DNA of 24,000 bases, from NCBI GenBank assembly GCA_019234295.1, contig JAFALK010000030.1, positions 1 to 24,000 on the forward strand, given 5' to 3'. Source of the stretch: Roseateles sp. GTDB taxonomy: Bacteria; Pseudomonadota; Gammaproteobacteria; Burkholderiales; Burkholderiaceae_C. The stretch's first letter is position 1. Every line of letters starts with the position of its first letter. A program made the position numbers and the translations under genes. Shown in pieces: positions 11,647-18,755 of the stretch. The notes under the pieces are model-generated. The model saw only the letters and a program-made list of their open reading frames with translations. It did no database searches and was not told where the DNA came from.

Positions 11647-12071
11647 TACGAGTGTCTGCTTGCCGGCGCCACATTGATACCACCGTTCAATGCATGCGCC
11701 CTTGACGCCTAGAGCAAACCTCAAGCTGATTGCGTTGTGGGGCACGATCCTGACCGCTTGAGCCATCTTCATGAGCTCCGTGGCTGTCCTGCCTGCCGCC
11801 ATGTTGGATGTCGCAGGGAGCGTCGCTGGCATGCTTCAGGCCAACGCTGTCAGGGGCCGGCACGCTTCTGTTCGGCGTGCCGAGCCCGCCATGGATGTGA
11901 GACGTGCGCTCGTCGCCTCGCTTCCCGGGGAAGATGCTATGTAAGACGTCTCGCGCCCGCGACCTGAGCTACAAACAGGGTCAAGGTGGCCGCCGAAGCG
12001 AGCGCGCATCGCTGATGTTTCGCAAGTGCAGCGCTTCGATCACGACCGCCATGACGCAAGACGCCTCCCCC

Positions 12072-13478
12072 TCAATACTCGGCGTGGATCCGAAGCCCGA
12101 AAACTGACACCGGTCCCCGGTCGGCGTTGTAGGCCGGGTTGCGCACGTATTGGTAGTCGGCGGTGATGCTCAGGGCCTTGCCCAGGCGAGCGTTGTAGTA
12201 GGCCTCGAGGATCTGCTCCGTCGCGTAGTGCAGCAGCTGGCCGTCGCCGATCACGATGCCCAAGCCTGCGGTTGCGAAGTACTGCCGGGCGTTAGCGGAC
12301 AAGCCGTTCCTCGCCAGCGCCAAGCCCGCACTGTGTTCGGGCTGGCCCCAAATGCGGCCCTTGACCTGCAGGCCGCCAGAGACGGACTCGTTGATGTCGG
12401 TGAAGTCGTACGCCTCGGTGCGGCCGTCGTTTCGGCTGTAACGCAGGAAGGCACCCGCGTCCGGGGCCAGCTCCTGCTCGGCGTTGATGACAAAGCCTTG
12501 CTTGCGCCGGCGCTGGCGCAAGGGCGCCAGATCGCTCGGCATCTCATCGCTCGCCTGGGCCTGATTGAGCGCATCAGCGTAGCTGGCCATACGAGCTTGC
12601 GTCAGGAAGCCGAGAAGTCGCACCGCGCCGGGATGCCCCATCCAGCTGTAGCGCCGCTCGACCTCGGCGATCCACTGACGCTGCTTGAACGTGCCGTCGA
12701 TGGTCATGTCATTCGGCCGCTTGGACATGGCCATCAGGCCGCCGCGCAGCGACCAGTCGCCGCGGGTCCACTCCGCCGCGCCGCCGCTGGTGAATCCCCA
12801 GGAATCGGCGGCGTAGTCGAAGGCCCCGCCGTCGATGATCGACCAATTCAAGAAATCCGCGCGAGGGTCGTGCGCGTAGGCGTTGGTGTCGAAGATGTCC
12901 ACGACGGAGAACTTGCCGAGGGTCAGCGTGATGCGGTCATCCGGCCGCGAGCCGGCCAACTGGTTGGCATCGGATTCGACCTCGCTGAGGGCCTCTCCCA
13001 ACGCGAAGGTCTGCCGCAGGAACGCGCGTGGCAGGCGCCCGTAGACGCTGTCGTGGCCGACCTTGTAGGCCTCGCCGCTCGTAAAACCGGCGACCCCCAG
13101 CGTGCCGGCCAGGCCGAAGCCCTGATCGAGTTCCGGGTTGAGGTAGATCTCACCGCCATTCCAGACCCGCACGCCCAGGAACAGAGTGGCGTCGAAAGTT
13201 TCTTTGGCGCTTTCATGGGAGGGCAGGCTGTTGGCGCCCGCGTAAGGCGAATTGAAACTGCCGTGTTTTTGCGTCATGTCGGTCAGCTGCACGTGCCAGC
13301 CCCAGGATTCGGGCGCGCTTTGCGGTGTTGCCGCCGGCGTGCTGGTCGGTGTCTCCTCGGGTTGCGGCGTCTGGGCCAGGGCCGGGGCGCCCAGCAGCGC
13401 GAGCGCCAGCAGGAGGGTTGCGGAGCGGGTGGCGCGCGCGTCAGAAGCGCAGGCAGCTTGGGTGATCCACTTGAACAT
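12072..13478 (-). CDS. OprB-family outer-membrane porin (carbohydrate-selective porin family; possibly MnoP-like)
   Basis: The track ORF of 764 aa is over-extended. The real start is MFKWITQAACASDARATRSATLLLALALLGAPALA-QT (ATG at complement of 13476-13478), with a signal peptide and a Pro/Thr-rich linker. Beta-barrel sequence follows with OprB-like blocks (SPYAGANSL, FLGVRVWNGGEIYLNPELDQGFG, TLGKFSVVDIFDTNAYAHDPRADFLNW, YDFTDINESVSGGLQVKG) and a terminal aromatic ...GLRIHAEY. Confidence 0.88.
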   Translation of the reverse strand: MFKWITQAACASDARATRSATLLLALALLGAPALAQTPQPEETPTSTPAATPQSAPESWGWHVQLTDMTQKHGSFNSPYAGANSLPSHESAKETFDATLFLGVRVWNGGEIYLNPELDQGFGLAGTLGVAGFTSGEAYKVGHDSVYGRLPRAFLRQTFALGEALSEVESDANQLAGSRPDDRITLTLGKFSVVDIFDTNAYAHDPRADFLNWSIIDGGAFDYAADSWGFTSGGAAEWTRGDWSLRGGLMAMSKRPNDMTIDGTFKQRQWIAEVERRYSWMGHPGAVRLLGFLTQARMASYADALNQAQASDEMPSDLAPLRQRRRKQGFVINAEQELAPDAGAFLRYSRNDGRTEAYDFTDINESVSGGLQVKGRIWGQPEHSAGLALARNGLSANARQYFATAGLGIVIGDGQLLHYATEQILEAYYNARLGKALSITADYQYVRNPAYNADRGPVSVFGLRIHAEY

Positions 13479-13567
13479 ATTCTCTATTTGGAAGTTATAG
13501 GGCGAAGCAAGGCCCGCCGGCACGTCTTTATCGACGCCGCGGATGCAATGGCGATGACGGTGAAGGG

Positions 13568-15217
13568 TCAGGCGTGCGCGAGCGCCAACTGCAGCACACG
13601 CACGATGGCCATGACAACGGCCACGAACAAGTACAGGCGCAGCACACCCATCCACAGCCGGGTTGAGGGCGTGAGCGGTGCCGGGGCCAAGGTGTGCAAG
13701 GGCGGCATGCGCCACAGCACCATGGGCTGCGTGGTCTCGCTGCCGGGCGCTGCCGCGCCCAAGGAAGGCGCGGCAAGGCGATAGGCCCGTACCGCGAGGG
13801 TGCTCAGCCCGATGACGGCAGTGAGCACGCCGCCGCCGACCAGAATCGCGATGATCTGGTCCTCGCTGATATCGGGGAATGCCACTGCGGCCGTCAGCAC
13901 GGTCGACAGGATGACGAGTACCGCCACGACAGCCGAGGTGAAGGCATTCGTGAGCTTGCCGTTGACCCAGGGGCCGAGCACCTGCTTGTCGTTGCACAGC
14001 AGCAGCAAGAAGACCGAGGCGCTGGGCAGCAGCACGCCGGCCAAGGTCTGCACGGCGTTGGTCAGCAGCCCGAGCGGCACGCCGGGCAGCAGCACCAGCG
14101 CTGCTGCGAGCACGATCAGTCCGCAATAGACGAAGTAAAAGCCCTTGGCCTCGCCGGGCTTGCGGTGCAGCGAGTGGTTCATCGACAGCACGTCGCCCAC
14201 GGCATAGGCGGTCGATAGGGAAACGGCCGCCGCGCCGATCACGCTGGCGTCGATGAGCGCCAGCGCGAACAACGTTCCCGCCCAATGCCCGTGGTAGTGC
14301 GCGAGACCCTTCGCCACCGCAAGCGCATCGGCGAACGCGCCGAACTCGGGCTTTCCGGCAAAGCAAAATGCCACGAGGCTGATGAGCGCGACGGCTCCCA
14401 GTACCACCAGCACGATGCCCAGCCAGAGATCCAGCCGCTCATAGCGAATGAAGCGCGGCGTAATGCGCTTGTCGATCACGTAGCTTTGTTGGAAGAACAA
14501 CTGCCAGGGCGCCACTGTCGTTCCGACGATGCCGATGATCAGCAGCATCACGTCGCTGAGCTTGGCGTCCTTGGGCAGCTGCACGGTGGCGAAGTCGCGC
14601 ACCAGCTGCCCCATCGGCGGATGGACCATCACGAACAGCGGCAGCAACACCAGGCTGCCGAGCACCAGGCTCAGCGCAAAGCGCTCGAAGCGGCGGAAGT
14701 CCCCGGTCCCGGCGGCCACCATCACCAGCATCGCGGCGATGCCGACGCCAACAATCCTTGGAATTCCCAGATAGTCCAGCCCCAGCGCGATGCCGATGAA
14801 CTCGGTCACGATCGTCAGCGCGTTCAGCAGGAACAGGTCAATCACGCTGAAGGCACCCCAGAAGCGGCCGAAACGCTCGAGGATCAGCCGCGCATGACCG
14901 ACCCCGGTCACGGCCCCCAGGCGCAGCACCATCTCCTGGTTCACATAGAGCACGGGGATCAGCAGCGCTAGCGTCCACAGCAGCGTAGTGCCGTAGTTCT
15001 GCCCGGCCTGCGCGTAGGTCGAAAAAGCCCCCGCATCGTTGTCACCCACCATCACGATCAGTCCCGGGCCGAGGATGGCCAGCAGCATTTTCAAGCGCTG
15101 CATGAGCTTGGGCTCGTGTTGGGAGTCGGTGAGCTTGATCGTTCCCAGCGCACCGCGAATATCGCCGACATGGGCGGCGTCCAGCACGGCCGAAGTCATC
15201 GCACGTGTGTTTTCCAT
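13568..15217 (-). CDS. NRAMP/SLC11-family cation transporter with a non-canonical metal-binding site (NRMT-like), 549 aa
   Basis: SD aggaga 6 nt before the ATG. NRAMP-type TM1 region is LAILGPGLIVMVGDNDAGAFSTYAQAGQNYG and TM6 region is LLIIGIVGTTVAPWQLFFQQSY. I count about 13 hydrophobic segments, with two extra C-terminal ones (IIAILVGGGVLTAVIGLSTLAV and LWMGVLRLYLFVAVVMAIVRVL). The canonical DPGN and AxxMPH motifs are replaced by DAGA and TxxAPW. Confidence 0.9.
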   Translation of the reverse strand: MENTRAMTSAVLDAAHVGDIRGALGTIKLTDSQHEPKLMQRLKMLLAILGPGLIVMVGDNDAGAFSTYAQAGQNYGTTLLWTLALLIPVLYVNQEMVLRLGAVTGVGHARLILERFGRFWGAFSVIDLFLLNALTIVTEFIGIALGLDYLGIPRIVGVGIAAMLVMVAAGTGDFRRFERFALSLVLGSLVLLPLFVMVHPPMGQLVRDFATVQLPKDAKLSDVMLLIIGIVGTTVAPWQLFFQQSYVIDKRITPRFIRYERLDLWLGIVLVVLGAVALISLVAFCFAGKPEFGAFADALAVAKGLAHYHGHWAGTLFALALIDASVIGAAAVSLSTAYAVGDVLSMNHSLHRKPGEAKGFYFVYCGLIVLAAALVLLPGVPLGLLTNAVQTLAGVLLPSASVFLLLLCNDKQVLGPWVNGKLTNAFTSAVVAVLVILSTVLTAAVAFPDISEDQIIAILVGGGVLTAVIGLSTLAVRAYRLAAPSLGAAAPGSETTQPMVLWRMPPLHTLAPAPLTPSTRLWMGVLRLYLFVAVVMAIVRVLQLALAHA

Positions 15218-15243
15218 TCTTGTTCTCCTGCAAGCAATGGAGC

Positions 15244-15426
15244 TCAGCGGCGCGAGCCGTAGGAGTCGACGAGCAGGCTGAAGCCGCTACGCTGCGGTGG
15301 CTGACCTGCAGGCTGCAAGGCCCGTTGAATCAGCCGGCTCGCATGTTGGCGCAACAGCGAACGCGTGGCGTTGAGCGGCCGGGCCGCGACGGGAATCTTG
15401 CGAATCGAGGAAATGAGGAAGGACAT
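15244..15426 (-). CDS. Small basic ORF (60 aa) immediately upstream of the NRAMP-like gene
   Basis: MSFLISSIRKIPVAARPLNATRSLLRQHASRLIQRALQPAGQPPQRSGFSLLVDSYGSRR. A strong SD sits at good spacing (ccgcaAGGAGAaacctATG). By my count GC3 is about 80 percent, similar to neighbouring genes. The stop lies 26 nt before the NRAMP start. It has no TM segment and no recognised family. Confidence 0.45.
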   Translation of the reverse strand: MSFLISSIRKIPVAARPLNATRSLLRQHASRLIQRALQPAGQPPQRSGFSLLVDSYGSRR

Positions 15427-15429
15427 AGG

Positions 15430-15486
15430 TTTCTCCTTGCGGTTTGGCGGAGAAACCGAGGCACTCAGTCGAGCGTCGTCCTCCGC
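15430..15486 (-). promoter_or_regulatory. Leader with mutually exclusive helices, one of which sequesters the SD of the small ORF
   Basis: Minus-strand RNA reads GCGGAG(15452-15447 region)...UUUCUCCGCcaaaccgcaAGGAGAAAcc-AUG. UUUCUCC can pair with GGAGAAA, the SD, in a 7-bp stem with a 12-nt loop. Alternatively CUCCGC pairs with the upstream GCGGAG (6 bp). On the + strand the elements are tttctcc 15430-15436, ggagaaa 15449-15455, gcggag 15447-15452 and ctccgc 15481-15486. Confidence 0.3.
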
Positions 15487-15944
15487 AGCCGAGCCGCGCG
15501 GTTGGTTAGCGTCAAATCAGATGATGGGTGAGGCGCGCGCTGGCGCCTACTAGGGTCGGGATCCAAGCGTTCCTCCGTTCAGAATTGAAGACAGATATGG
15601 CTCACGCCCTTAGCGGGCAAGCAGCTGGGCACTATCGGGCCAAGCCAGCAGACCCGCACGCAAGCGGCGTGTCGGCCAAATGGTCAAGGCATCCAGTGCA
15701 GCGGAATTGACGGGGTCCAGAGACTGAGAGGACATTCCAGCCGCGGCCGGTCGCGCACGCCGCGACGGCGGCACGGCGAGCGCTCCACGCTCGGTCTTCG
15801 TCAGGGCTTCACGGTCTTGCAGCATGTCCAGTCCTCGGGCAAAGCCGGGCACCGCCATGCGCGCACAGAGCAAGCAAACGCGTCGAGCCCGGACACGCGC
15901 ACGCGCGTCATGGCTCGAACAACAGTGAATCAGAGTGGGGAGAA

Positions 15945-15961
15945 AAGCCCCGCAAGGGCTT
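15945..15961 (-). terminator. Weak orphan intrinsic-terminator-like hairpin (minus-strand orientation)
   Basis: Minus strand reads AAGCCC ttgcg GGGCTT followed by ttctcccc. The stem is 6 bp and its 3' TT plus the following TTCT give GGGCUUUUCU. No annotated minus-strand gene lies upstream of it. Confidence 0.3.
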
Positions 15962-16144
15962 GTCAATCAGGCGCCCGGTCCGCTCGGAACCGATGCGCCT
16001 GGGAGCAGGCGTCAGACGGTCGAGCAGTGAGCGGCCATCACGGCTCGCTTCAATTCACTGTAACAACTGGCACTGTCCACGCACGCGGCTCCGAAATTTT
16101 GATGGCCTCATTTTGGCACCGACGGTGCCTCGAAGTCAACAAAA

Positions 16145-16165
16145 TATAGTATCCGGGGGTATAGA
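16145..16165. promoter_or_regulatory. Second RcnR/CsoR-type operator-like site (AT-rich arms flanking a G5 tract)
   Basis: tatagtatccgggggtataga. The 12-mer GGGGTATAGAAC matches GGGGTATAGTAC on the minus strand of the rcnA-rcnR operator at 11 of 12 positions. Both sites are preceded on the + strand by AAGTCAA, 7-8 nt upstream of TA(C/G)TAT. Confidence 0.35.
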
Positions 16166-16477
16166 ACGTGAGCGACCTTTTATTCGCATGGACGCAACAT
16201 ACGTCGTGCCCGAAGCCAGCCCTCGTTCGCCTCGGCTCGGGGGCATTTCCGCTACTCGTGTCCCCTACTCAGACGCGCCCCCAAGCAACCGCGGCTCGGC
16301 CTGGTCCAACCGGCTGCCACCGAGAGCATCGAACGGCCCGGCGTCTCGCTTCATCAGGGTCGACCCGCTGCGAGCTATTTGCGCAGGCAGCGTCTTTACA
16401 CTGGAGGTCACTTCTACGCGAAGGGCGCCACCTTGCGCATACGCGACCGCGTCGCGGTCTAGTAGAATCACGATCAC

Positions 16478-16586
16478 TCCTCGGGGAGTAGCCGCTTCAG
16501 GCGCAACGCTTGAAGGCGCTCGTCAACATACTTGCCGATTGCATCGGCATGGCGTGCGCGGCAAATGCTTGGCAAGACCGATGGCA
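16478..16586 (+). promoter_or_regulatory. yybP-ykoY (Mn2+) riboswitch aptamer
   Basis: Conserved blocks are in the right order: GGGGAGUAG (16483-16491), GUCAACAUAC (16522-16531) and GGCAAGACC (16571-16579). Intervening hairpins are CGCUUCA/UGAAGGCG (16493-16518) and UUGCCG/CGGCAA (16532-16564). It aligns by eye to the L. lactis yoaB aptamer (GGGGAGUAGC...UUGACAUAC...AGCAAGACC). A -10-like TAGAAT lies at 16463-16468. Confidence 0.85.
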
Positions 16587-16637
16587 GATGTCCTTCCCAG
16601 GTCGGGGCGCGGGACTTTTTGCCATCGTGTTTTGATC
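16579..16637 (+). terminator. Riboswitch expression platform: terminator-like structure overlapping the 3' strand of aptamer P1
   Basis: Outer helix CGATGGCA (16579-16586) / TGCCATCG (16620-16627) encloses an inner hairpin GTCC..CCC aggtc GGG..GGAC (16590-16615). The inner hairpin is followed by TTTTT, and the outer helix by TGTTTTG. The 5' arm overlaps the CCGA that closes the aptamer, which is compatible with a Mn2+-ON antitermination design. Confidence 0.45.
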
Positions 16638-16661
16638 CATGCGCCCTGCCAAAGAGCTCTC

Positions 16662-17252
16662 ATGGAATCCTTCCTCGTCTCCACCAGCGTCGTTGGCCTG
16701 GCCGAAATCGGCGACAAGACGCAACTGCTTTCGCTGGTGCTCGCGGCCCGCTACCGCAAACCGATCCCCCTGATTCTTGGAATCTTCGTAGCGACGCTGG
16801 TGAATCACACCTGTTCGGGTGCGGTTGGCGCGTGGCTTGCGAACGTGATCGACCCAGGCGTTATGAACTGGGTGGTGGTCGCCTCGTTCGCCGTGATGGC
16901 CGTTTGGATAATGATCCCCGACAAGCTGGACGAAGCCGACTCGGCAATCACCCAGCGCGCCCTTGGCGTCTTTGGCACGACCGTGGTGACATTTTTCCTG
17001 GCTGAGATGGGCGACAAGACTCAGATCGTGACCGTGGCGCTTGCCGCGCGATTCCACGAAATCTGGGGCGTTGTTGCCGGTACAACCTTGGGCATGATGC
17101 TCGCCAACATACCCGTCGTCTATTTGGGAAACAGGTTCTCCGACAAGATGCCGACCAAGGCGGTCCACGTCCTCGCCGCGATCATCTTCATGGTGATGGG
17201 GGGGCTTGCACTGCGCGCTGCACTCTACCCACAGGCTGGGCCGCACTTCTGA
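16662..17252 (+). CDS. UPF0016 family (GDT1/TMEM165/MneA-type) putative Mn2+/Ca2+ exporter, 196 aa
   Basis: The real start is MESFLVSTSVVGLAEIGDKTQLL. The 430-aa track ORF 15960..17252 runs through the riboswitch and is an artefact. The two signature E-x-G-D-K-T motifs (EIGDKTQ and EMGDKTQ) each open a three-helix repeat. Confidence 0.9.
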   Translation: MESFLVSTSVVGLAEIGDKTQLLSLVLAARYRKPIPLILGIFVATLVNHTCSGAVGAWLANVIDPGVMNWVVVASFAVMAVWIMIPDKLDEADSAITQRALGVFGTTVVTFFLAEMGDKTQIVTVALAARFHEIWGVVAGTTLGMMLANIPVVYLGNRFSDKMPTKAVHVLAAIIFMVMGGLALRAALYPQAGPHF

Positions 17253-18672: not shown

Positions 18673-18724
18673 GATGCGTCGCCGGGCGCGCCTTCGGGCG
18701 TGTCCGTTCAAGTCAATTTCCATG

Positions 18725-18739
18725 TACTATACCCCAGTA
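18725..18739. promoter_or_regulatory. RcnR-type operator in the rcnA-rcnR divergent region
   Basis: TACTATACCCCAGTA, which on the minus strand reads TACTGGGGTATAGTA. This is a TACT-N7-AGTA inverted repeat with a G/C tract, like the E. coli RcnR site TACT-G6-N-AGTA. It lies 17 nt before the rcnR ATG. Confidence 0.6.
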
Positions 18740-18755
18740 CCCTAAAAATACCTGT

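Follow-up and report, generated by a model that had tools for sequence, protein, structure and literature searches.

A candidate Mg2+-starvation uptake operon with an NRMT-clade transporter and a putative MnoP-like porin in Roseateles sp.

We analysed a 24,000-nt stretch of DNA from Roseateles sp. (assembly GCA_019234295.1, contig JAFALK010000030.1, positions 1-24,000), referred to as the window in the following. Its region 12072-15426 carries, on the minus strand, a small open reading frame (ORF), a transporter gene of the NRAMP (SLC11) family and a gene of the OprB porin family. Based on the evidence below, we consider it likely, at a probability of roughly 60%, that this region is an operon for Mg2+ uptake across both membranes under Mg2+ starvation, which would probably take up Mn2+ as well. 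A first-pass annotation of the window had already proposed a two-membrane pathway for a divalent cation, and both the conserved synteny and the porin subfamily lend support to this proposal. The gene order and the two spacers that it reported (26 and 89 nt) were borne out by the ORF list, the sequence and Pfam. The features used in the following are:

15426-15244, minus strand: small ORF (upstream ORF 2, uORF2), 60 amino acids, ATG start, stop codon 26 nt before the transporter start
15243-15218: spacer between small ORF and transporter, 26 nt
15217-13568, minus strand: gene of an SLC11 transporter of the NRMT clade (NRAMP-related Mg2+ transporters), 549 amino acids, ATG start, Pfam Nramp 1.5e-78
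13567-13479: spacer between transporter and porin, 89 nt
13478-12072, minus strand: gene of a putative MnoP-like OprB-family porin, 468 amino acids, ATG start, Pfam OprB 7.7e-49
15566-15465, minus strand: uORF1, 33 codons, TTG start, Shine-Dalgarno (SD) sequence GGAGGA, encoding MDPDPSRRQRAPHP...
15457-15428, minus strand: predicted SD-sequestering hairpin GGUUUCUCCGCC...GCAAGGAGAAACC, from minimum-free-energy (MFE) folds and conservation
16139-16110, minus strand: candidate sigma-70-like promoter TTGACT-18-CAAAAT, from a consensus scan
16168-16146, minus strand: RcnR-type operator-like site TCTATACCCCCGGATACTATA, from its resemblance to the site between rcnA and rcnR
16471-16637, plus strand: yybP-ykoY Mn2+ riboswitch, Rfam, 55.5 bits

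We infer from the gene arrangement that transporter and porin are co-transcribed in one operon. The consensus scan gave no terminator-like site in the 89-nt spacer, in line with the earlier remark that no strong hairpin with a U-tract lies there. Nor did it find a promoter-like site in this spacer; the idea that the AT-rich spacer end holds a promoter of its own, which had also been considered, gains no support from the scan, although such a promoter might still be present. That no sugar ABC (ATP-binding cassette), phosphotransferase system or kinase gene flanks the porin was likewise correct, the downstream genes being an aldo/keto reductase and an alpha/beta hydrolase according to Pfam.

Transporter identity and magnesium links

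Judged by its site residues and its closest structural match, the transporter is a member of the NRMT clade, a published kind of Mg2+ transporter. In a PDB search of the 549-residue protein, the closest chain was EleNRMT of Eggerthella lenta (7QIA, 3.4e-54), ahead of the next chain by 35 orders of magnitude (runner-up NRAMP chain 3.6e-19; MntH/DMT structures 1e-12 or worse). The NCBIfam MntH model reached 96 bits, far under its cut-off of 430 bits. The NRMT site has been defined as DxxG-TxxA/T, replacing the DPGN-AxxMPH of transition-metal NRAMPs (Ramanadane et al., PMC8806188). In the alignment to EleNRMT, GDNDAGAFSTY falls on GNDAGGISTY in transmembrane segment 1 (TM1) and GTTVAPWQLFFQQS on GTTIAPWMMFFNQS in TM6. 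The TM1 Asp is kept and the Asn is lost, as in the published NRMT proteins, but the motif reads D-A-G-A and thus ends in Ala instead of the consensus Gly. Across the clade, DAGA occurs in 78 of 81 sequences and DAGG in the other three, a small residue either way, and DxxA is a sub-clade variant.

In TM6, the window protein has G-T-T-V-A-P-W where EleNRMT has G-T-T-I-A-P-W; the soft Met ligand is replaced by Ala and a Thr is gained at the position of an Ala, and TT[VIL]APW is present in all clade members. Canonical NRAMPs carry M-P-H-N-L-x-L-H-S in TM6b (PMC8806188), whereas the window protein reads A-P-W-Q-L-F-F-Q-Q and EleNRMT A-P-W-M-M-F-F-N-Q. In both, the proton-coupling histidines are lost, one to Trp and one to a polar, non-titratable residue. 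The first-pass annotation had spoken of an NRAMP with an altered selectivity site. The altered residues (DAGA/TTVAPW) are indeed present; such a site is the hallmark of a known clade (PMC4072509, PMC8806188), here with Ala in place of the consensus Gly in TM1. For EleNRMT, transport of Mg2+ and Mn2+, but not of Ca2+, has been reported, without H+ coupling (PMC8806188).

The window protein shares the SLC11 fold with EleNRMT and the NrmT of Clostridium acetobutylicum (PMC4072509), and some of its orthologues, like genes of that group, lie under an M-box and adjoin MgtE-N/CBS fragments. It differs from EleNRMT in an identity of about 40% or less, in the fourth TM1 position and in a C-terminal extension of about 100 residues. 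Furthermore, the proteobacterial genes lack an M-box and have instead a uORF leader together with a porin and/or MgtC partner; neither such partners nor a uORF leader are described in the NRMT literature searched (PMC4072509, PMC8806188).

For comparative analysis, we used a set of 80 orthologous loci (60-86% identity) from Alpha-, Beta- and Gammaproteobacteria and Actinobacteria, 62 of them Gram-negative. Among the 17 actinobacterial loci with upstream sequence, 12 showed an M-box (RF00380, 111-142 bits) on the same strand, 240-600 nt upstream of the transporter gene, and these M-box-controlled orthologues have site residues identical to DAGA/TTVAPW. Association with an M-box has been described as the best predictor of an Nramp-related gene being a Mg2+ transporter (Shin et al., PMC4072509). 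Clustering of all flanking ORFs, with families confirmed by Pfam, revealed OprB-family porins (24 loci), MgtC (20/80 loci) and a soluble MgtE_N+CBS protein (7 loci) as the commonest true neighbours; an MgtE fragment has already been reported as a gene partner of NrmT (Shin et al., PMC4072509).

The nearest relatives, namely Roseateles puraquae (L012), Pelomonas aquatica (L013) and a Burkholderiales metagenome-assembled genome (MAG) from peat, have an NRMT-porin-MgtC string, which was found in L012, L013 and L021, with MgtC immediately 3' of the porin in L012 and L013. A remnant of MgtC was sought 3' of the window porin and not found, the synteny with L012 and L013 stopping exactly at the porin stop codon. 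The genome of the window has three MgtC genes, all of them away from the operon.

Several further genes adjoin these loci. In R. puraquae (L012:9861-10805) and P. aquatica (L013:9815-10768), the NRMT-porin-MgtC string continues on its strand with a cation-diffusion-facilitator gene (Cation_efflux + ZT_dimer), which is absent in the window. A Na/Pi-cotransporter-PhoU fusion adjoins the NRMT gene or its porin at L032:7876-9663, L037:10933-12669 and L086:7669-9405. In Streptomyces/Actinacidiphila, extra M-boxes adjoin NRMT loci (L069:950-1122(-), L084:2745-2918(-) and L084:4452-4629(-)); in L084, a second NRMT paralogue (56% identity) is followed by MgtE_N+CBS, and these loci form small Mg2+ islands.

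The inventory of Mg2+ importers provides a further line of evidence. Models of CorA, MgtE and MgtA had no match in the genome of the window, whereas each of 24 further genomes from the same family had CorA; as this genome is only 86.7% complete, the absence of the three importers is not proven by this result. The even Pseudomonadota sample described below contains seven further carriers of the clade. Of these, G025 and G275, both with 100% completeness, also gave no CorA, MgtE or MgtA match; G025 has a second NRMT-like gene (38% identity). Two others have one importer of the three, MgtA in G043 and MgtE in G297. Since cells must import Mg2+, the NRMT clade is the obvious candidate for this role in genomes where CorA, MgtE and MgtA were not detected.

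The porin and its pairing with the transporter

The porin is built of a signal peptide, a Pro/Thr-rich linker and a predicted beta-barrel, and matches Pfam OprB (PF04966) over residues 91-466 with 167.5 bits (cut-off 22.9; E 7.7e-49). It is the sole OprB-family match in its genome. Searching its AlphaFold2 model (pLDDT 77.8, pTM 0.78) against PDB with Foldseek gave the OprB of Pseudomonas putida (4GEY) as top match (E 1.7e-13, TM-score 0.62/0.68). While the porin thus shares the Pfam family and the predicted barrel fold of the Pseudomonas glucose porin, it is only 16% identical to it, lacks a carbohydrate-uptake context and falls on another, MnoP-like branch of the family: porins of the window type score 117-173 bits on the OprB model, compared to 263-372 bits for the canonical type. 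No sugar-uptake genes were found at the window, and no conserved ones at the 24 porin-bearing loci.

Close homologues of the porin (52-75% identity) are named "high affinity Mn2+ porin" in JGI/UniRef, an orthology name taken from MnoP and annotated by similarity, and "carbohydrate porin" in the NCBI naming. MnoP has been described as a fusion of a Brucella-Rhizobium-type barrel and a C-terminal OprB-like domain (Reddy & Saier, PMC4827864). The window porin consists of the OprB domain only, without the N-terminal OMP_b-brl domain of the MnoP build. Porins with both domains nevertheless adjoin the orthologous transporter in Bradyrhizobium, Methylobacterium and Dyella, and the OprB part of those next to NRMT in L022, L027, L032 and L037 shows 40-46% identity to the window porin. 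The view in the first-pass annotation that MnoP belongs to the OprB family was therefore essentially right. Overall, these results suggest that the window gene encodes a MnoP-like OprB-family outer-membrane channel.

An OprB-family gene was found within 6 kb of the orthologous transporter in 24 of the 62 Gram-negative loci, either up- or downstream and in all three proteobacterial classes; transporter and porin are on the same strand in 19 and divergent in five. The window-like porin type accounts for 16 of these loci, always on the same strand as the transporter and located downstream or upstream of it, while the eight further loci have a more canonical OprB type, oriented divergently in Paraburkholderia/Burkholderia and in the direction of the transporter in Rhodoblastus and Bordetella MAGs. 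The gaps between both genes range from a 4-nt overlap (L018) and 8 nt (L030) over 40-120 nt (L012, L013, L021, L040, L088) up to distances above 1 kb. The clade occurs in eight of 401 evenly sampled Pseudomonadota genomes, and five of these eight have an OprB gene within 2.5 kb. As the OprB family occurs in one to three copies per genome, which corresponds to an expectation of about 1%, the adjacency of transporter and porin is far commoner than chance. The varied gene arrangements point to selection rather than to the inheritance of one layout.

The leader and upstream signals

A motif scan revealed a previously unnoticed reading frame, uORF1, which starts about 140 nt upstream of the small ORF and encodes M-D-P-D-P-S..., an acidic/proline N-terminus like that of MgtL. 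The start codon is TTG in the window and ATG in relatives; L012 and L013 have conserved, ATG-started MDPDPSW... versions whose stop codons align with that of the window. Asp/Pro uORFs are conserved in L012, L013, L014, L019, L020, L021, Ralstonia and Paraburkholderia. Based on a strict definition (SD sequence, no more than 50 codons, three or more D/E/P in residues 2-7 with one or more of each kind), such uORFs were present in 19/62 Gram-negative leaders on the sense strand compared to 2/62 on the antisense strand. Examples are MDPYPS (Aquitalea), MEPGPS (peat MAG), MPDPEP and MPDSDS[YC]P (Paraburkholderia) and MDSPSRPY (Ralstonia), whereas alphaproteobacterial-type leaders carry M-[NK]-P-R-S-S in place of Asp/Pro. 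No Asp/Pro-rich uORF was found upstream of stand-alone porin homologues, of porin-first operons or of the three MgtC genes in the genome of the window.

In Salmonella and E. coli, MgtL senses Mg2+ in that ribosomes dissociate on its EPDP start at low Mg2+ (PMC11282234, PMC11552253), and the destabilising motif comprises Glu2, Pro3 and Asp4 (PMC11282234). Like the mgtA leader with MgtL (and corA/corL), the window leader has a short, SD-preceded uORF in front of a predicted Mg2+ importer. In MgtL and in uORF1, residues 2-5 alternate between acidic and Pro (EPDP and DPDP, respectively), and alternative or sequestering RNA helices follow. The window leader differs from the enterobacterial arrangement in the transporter family, in a second, longer uORF and in its Burkholderiales host, and neither by sequence nor by Rfam does it match the enterobacterial Mg sensor. 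In the Rfam search of the whole window (E<=1), the Mn2+ riboswitch was the sole match, so that no M-box (RF00380), no Mg sensor and no match within the leader was obtained.

Downstream of uORF1, the hairpin at 15457-15428 would bury the SD sequence of the small ORF. It appears in the MFE folds of the window, L012 and L013, the predicted probability of this SD being unpaired is 0.02-0.30, and in L012 a U-A to G-U change involving both hairpin sides keeps the pairing. An analogous CCUCC...GGAGG hairpin with compensatory changes is found in the alphaproteobacterial-type leader, for which five helices with 28 pairs were predicted (88.7% of cells paired). This structure has 10 compensatory pairs compared to a shuffle mean of 5.4 (1/500 shuffles reach 10; far lower values with slid partners); as it was predicted on the same alignment, these statistics are supportive only. 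We also considered GCGGAGGA in uORF1 as an anti-anti-SD. In partition-function folding with ribosome footprints masked, the SD of the small ORF stayed paired in all states, and therefore the detailed switch model was dropped and the conserved SD hairpin alone retained.

The small ORF (uORF2) encodes a basic product without a transmembrane segment or a Pfam or NCBIfam family. Its reading frame stays open in L012 and L013, where the length differs by 45 nt in frame, the stop codon keeps its place, and N-terminal (M-[ST]-[FL]) and C-terminal (...GLLVD..G..R*) residues are conserved. Positionally equivalent ORFs start with M-x-F in Burkholderia/Paraburkholderia, where synonymous third-position changes typical of coding sequence were observed, and occur also in alphaproteobacterial-type leaders. 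A search of 5.8 billion proteins for homologues of the small ORF gave only one relative, with 87% identity, in which it is annotated as a protein.

A further ORF lies upstream of uORF1 at 15610-15966 (minus strand). Its C-terminal part (..LDALTIWPTRRLRAGLLAWP..) is conserved in L013 (..IDAASIWPTHRLRAFWLTQP..), in an ORF of 63 residues that has its own SD sequence and precedes uORF1. This frame, for which L012 shows no clear counterpart, may represent a third small ORF within a long leader.

Scanning the minus strand of 11800-16700 for sigma-70-like matches gave the candidate promoter at 16139-16110 as the only hit, which we tentatively take as the start of a long leader; a weak terminator-like hairpin follows near 15961-15945. 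The operator-like TCTATACCCCCGGATACTATA (16168-16146) abuts this promoter-like match and resembles GTACTATACCCCAGTAC (18724-18740) in the rcnA-rcnR intergenic region. This putative RcnR-like site may represent an additional transition-metal input or a coincidence within a metal island. The other strand upstream of the operon carries the Mn2+ riboswitch and a GDT1/UPF0016 exporter, followed by rcnA and rcnR. The riboswitch-exporter pair (16471-17252, plus strand) is concealed within a spurious ORF of 430 amino acids and is also present in R. puraquae (L012, 103 bits).

Proposed function and alternatives

From M-box control of orthologues, the MgtC neighbours, the MgtL-like uORF and the genomes in which no other Mg2+ importer was detected, Mg2+ emerges as the probable main cation. 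Weighing these four lines against the Mn2+ transport by EleNRMT, the Mn2+-type NrmT and the lack of a canonical MntH leads us to a substrate range of mainly Mg2+, with Mn2+ probably co-transported. In the proposed pathway, the MnoP-like channel would admit the hydrated cation to the periplasm, and the NRMT-type carrier would move Mg2+ (and Mn2+) over the inner membrane without H+ coupling, as described for EleNRMT. Both genes would be transcribed behind a long leader comprising the Asp/Pro-rich uORF1 and then the SD-hiding hairpin before uORF2. By analogy with mgtL-mgtA of Salmonella, ribosomes would fall off the start of uORF1 at low cytoplasmic Mg2+; this would alter the leader fold, and expression of transporter and porin would continue. 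Since modelling of the switch failed, Mg2+-dependent control by uORF1 is put forward only as this analogy.

Several points weigh against Mg2+ as the main cation. Transport by the DAGA clade is a prediction from the genes, and the NrmT of A. capsulatum, which has no riboswitch, was found to act mainly as a Mn2+ transporter (Shin et al., PMC4072509). The window itself has neither an M-box (Rfam, E<=1) nor MgtC beside the porin, and its genome is incomplete, as mentioned above. No porin is nearby in 38 of the 62 Gram-negative loci, and the Ralstonia porin gene, placed upstream of the leader, is not under its control. Porin homologues with 41-52% identity stand alone in genomes without the transporter, next to an amino-acid permease, an RND pump, alaS or a sensor kinase. 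MnoP, a Mn2+ channel, is the one relative of the porin that has been characterised, and the subfamily carries a matching name in databases; a search of the literature for a link of OprB or MnoP to Mg2+ yielded nothing relevant. In addition, folding with ribosome masks did not reproduce a switch that opens the SD, and the position of the operon beside a Mn2+-riboswitch exporter and rcnRA makes a role in Mn or transition-metal handling plausible.

It is conceivable, though in our view unlikely, that the operon serves Mn2+ acquisition as a direct analogue of MnoP/MntH and that Mg2+ is not its physiological substrate. The porin subfamily bears the name of a high-affinity Mn2+ porin after MnoP, which mediates Mn2+ import in proteoliposomes and in vivo (PMC9334652), but the database name was transferred by similarity and not by a test. 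EleNRMT carries Mn2+ as well (PMC8806188), and with the A. capsulatum NrmT, rescue was better for a mutant in Mn2+ transport than for one in Mg2+ transport (PMC4072509), whereas orthologues with the same site lie under an M-box in 12 loci and recur beside MgtC and MgtE-N/CBS. The window gene is the sole NRAMP-family match in its genome, with no canonical MntH, and the operon adjoins the Mn2+-riboswitch exporter; yet its leader peptide bears an MgtL-type Mg2+-sensing motif, and G025 and G275 would, with a Mn2+-only carrier, have no recognisable Mg2+ importer at all.

Less probable still is a stress operon for Ni/Co or other transition metals under a CsoR/RcnR-type repressor, which would secure Mg2+ import against poisoning or take up another cation. 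The operator-like site abuts the only promoter-like match upstream of the leader, rcnR-rcnA lies 2.3 kb off, and CsoR/RcnR-family genes are the immediate divergent neighbours of the NRMT leader in L012, L037, L067 and L079. The match is short, however, and about 540 nt away from uORF1 with the terminator-like hairpin between them; most loci have no such regulator, and it would be illogical for a metal to induce its own importer. Such control would be compatible with Mg2+ uptake as an additional regulatory layer.

That transporter and porin are unrelated neighbours, the latter being a general channel or one for sugars, driven perhaps by a separate promoter at the AT-rich end of the spacer, seems very improbable. 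In favour of this reading, OprB is a carbohydrate-selective porin family, homologues occur without the transporter, 38/62 loci have no porin nearby and co-transcription is deduced from gene order. Against it, the adjacency recurs in three proteobacterial classes and several arrangements against about 1% expected, the genes overlap (L018) or lie 8 nt apart (L030), the spacer has no promoter-like or terminator-like site, and the genome's sole OprB gene has no sugar-uptake genes near it.

Returning to the Mg2+-starvation uptake operon, precedents exist for each of its parts: NRMT carriers with demonstrated transport, MnoP as an OprB-related Mn2+ channel known to function with MntH, MgtL leaders, and MgtC beside Mg2+ importers. 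To our knowledge, mnoP and mntH of Bradyrhizobium japonicum are co-regulated and not adjacent. That pair (PMC9334652, PMC4827864) likewise combines an OprB-related outer-membrane channel with an NRAMP-family carrier for a divalent cation, the window porin being of the same subfamily by database naming. Its carrier is a canonical Mn2+/H+ MntH regulated by Mur, whereas the window carrier is of the NRMT type. Here, both genes appear to form one operon, the porin has no N-terminal OMP_b-brl domain and the regulatory signals point toward Mg2+. The mgtCBR operon of Salmonella resembles the strings of L012, L013 and L021, as MgtC is encoded alongside a Mg2+ importer induced by starvation, downstream of a leader whose short ORFs contain prolines; it differs in having a P-type ATPase instead of an NRMT importer and no porin, and in the window MgtC is not part of the operon. 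In the literature searched, we found no description of an operon of NRMT, MnoP-like porin and MgtC or of its spread in proteobacteria, nor of an M-box being replaced by an Asp/Pro-uORF leader before the same orthologous gene.

Mg2+ is the most abundant divalent cation in cells, and its passage through the outer membrane is assumed to occur via general porins; we know of no outer-membrane channel dedicated to it. An operon of NRMT, MnoP-like porin and often MgtC would make a first candidate for Mg2+ transport across both membranes and, if true, would carry the principle of MnoP/MntH, the one experimental precedent (for Mn2+), over to a second cation and many soil bacteria. A more far-reaching proposal, which we hold tentatively and at clearly less than even odds, is that NRMT-linked MnoP-like porins are dedicated outer-membrane channels induced by Mg2+ starvation, forming with NRMT the principal or only Mg2+ route, switched by an MgtL-like leader peptide. 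As part of it, NRMT and porin might be the only Mg2+ route in genomes that lack CorA, MgtE and MgtA. With the same reserve, an MgtL-like peptide could have arisen or been retained outside Enterobacteria, before a different transporter family. The intrinsic ribosome destabilisation by MgtL-type Asp/Pro residues may serve again in Burkholderiales as a Mg2+ sensor before another transporter family; actinobacterial members of the orthologous family have an M-box in its place. If the clade is the only recognisable Mg2+ importer in several complete genomes, it should enter genome-based models of Mg2+ homeostasis.

The clade is rare overall: eight of the 401 Pseudomonadota in the sample carry it, and it is missing from two genomes of the genus to which the window belongs. 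Many carriers come from acid, Mg-poor habitats, and the clade is frequent in bacteria of acid or peat soil, including Paraburkholderia, Bradyrhizobium, Rhodoblastus acidophilus, Acidocella, Roseiarcus, Methylocella, Dyella and MAGs from peat and SPRUCE.

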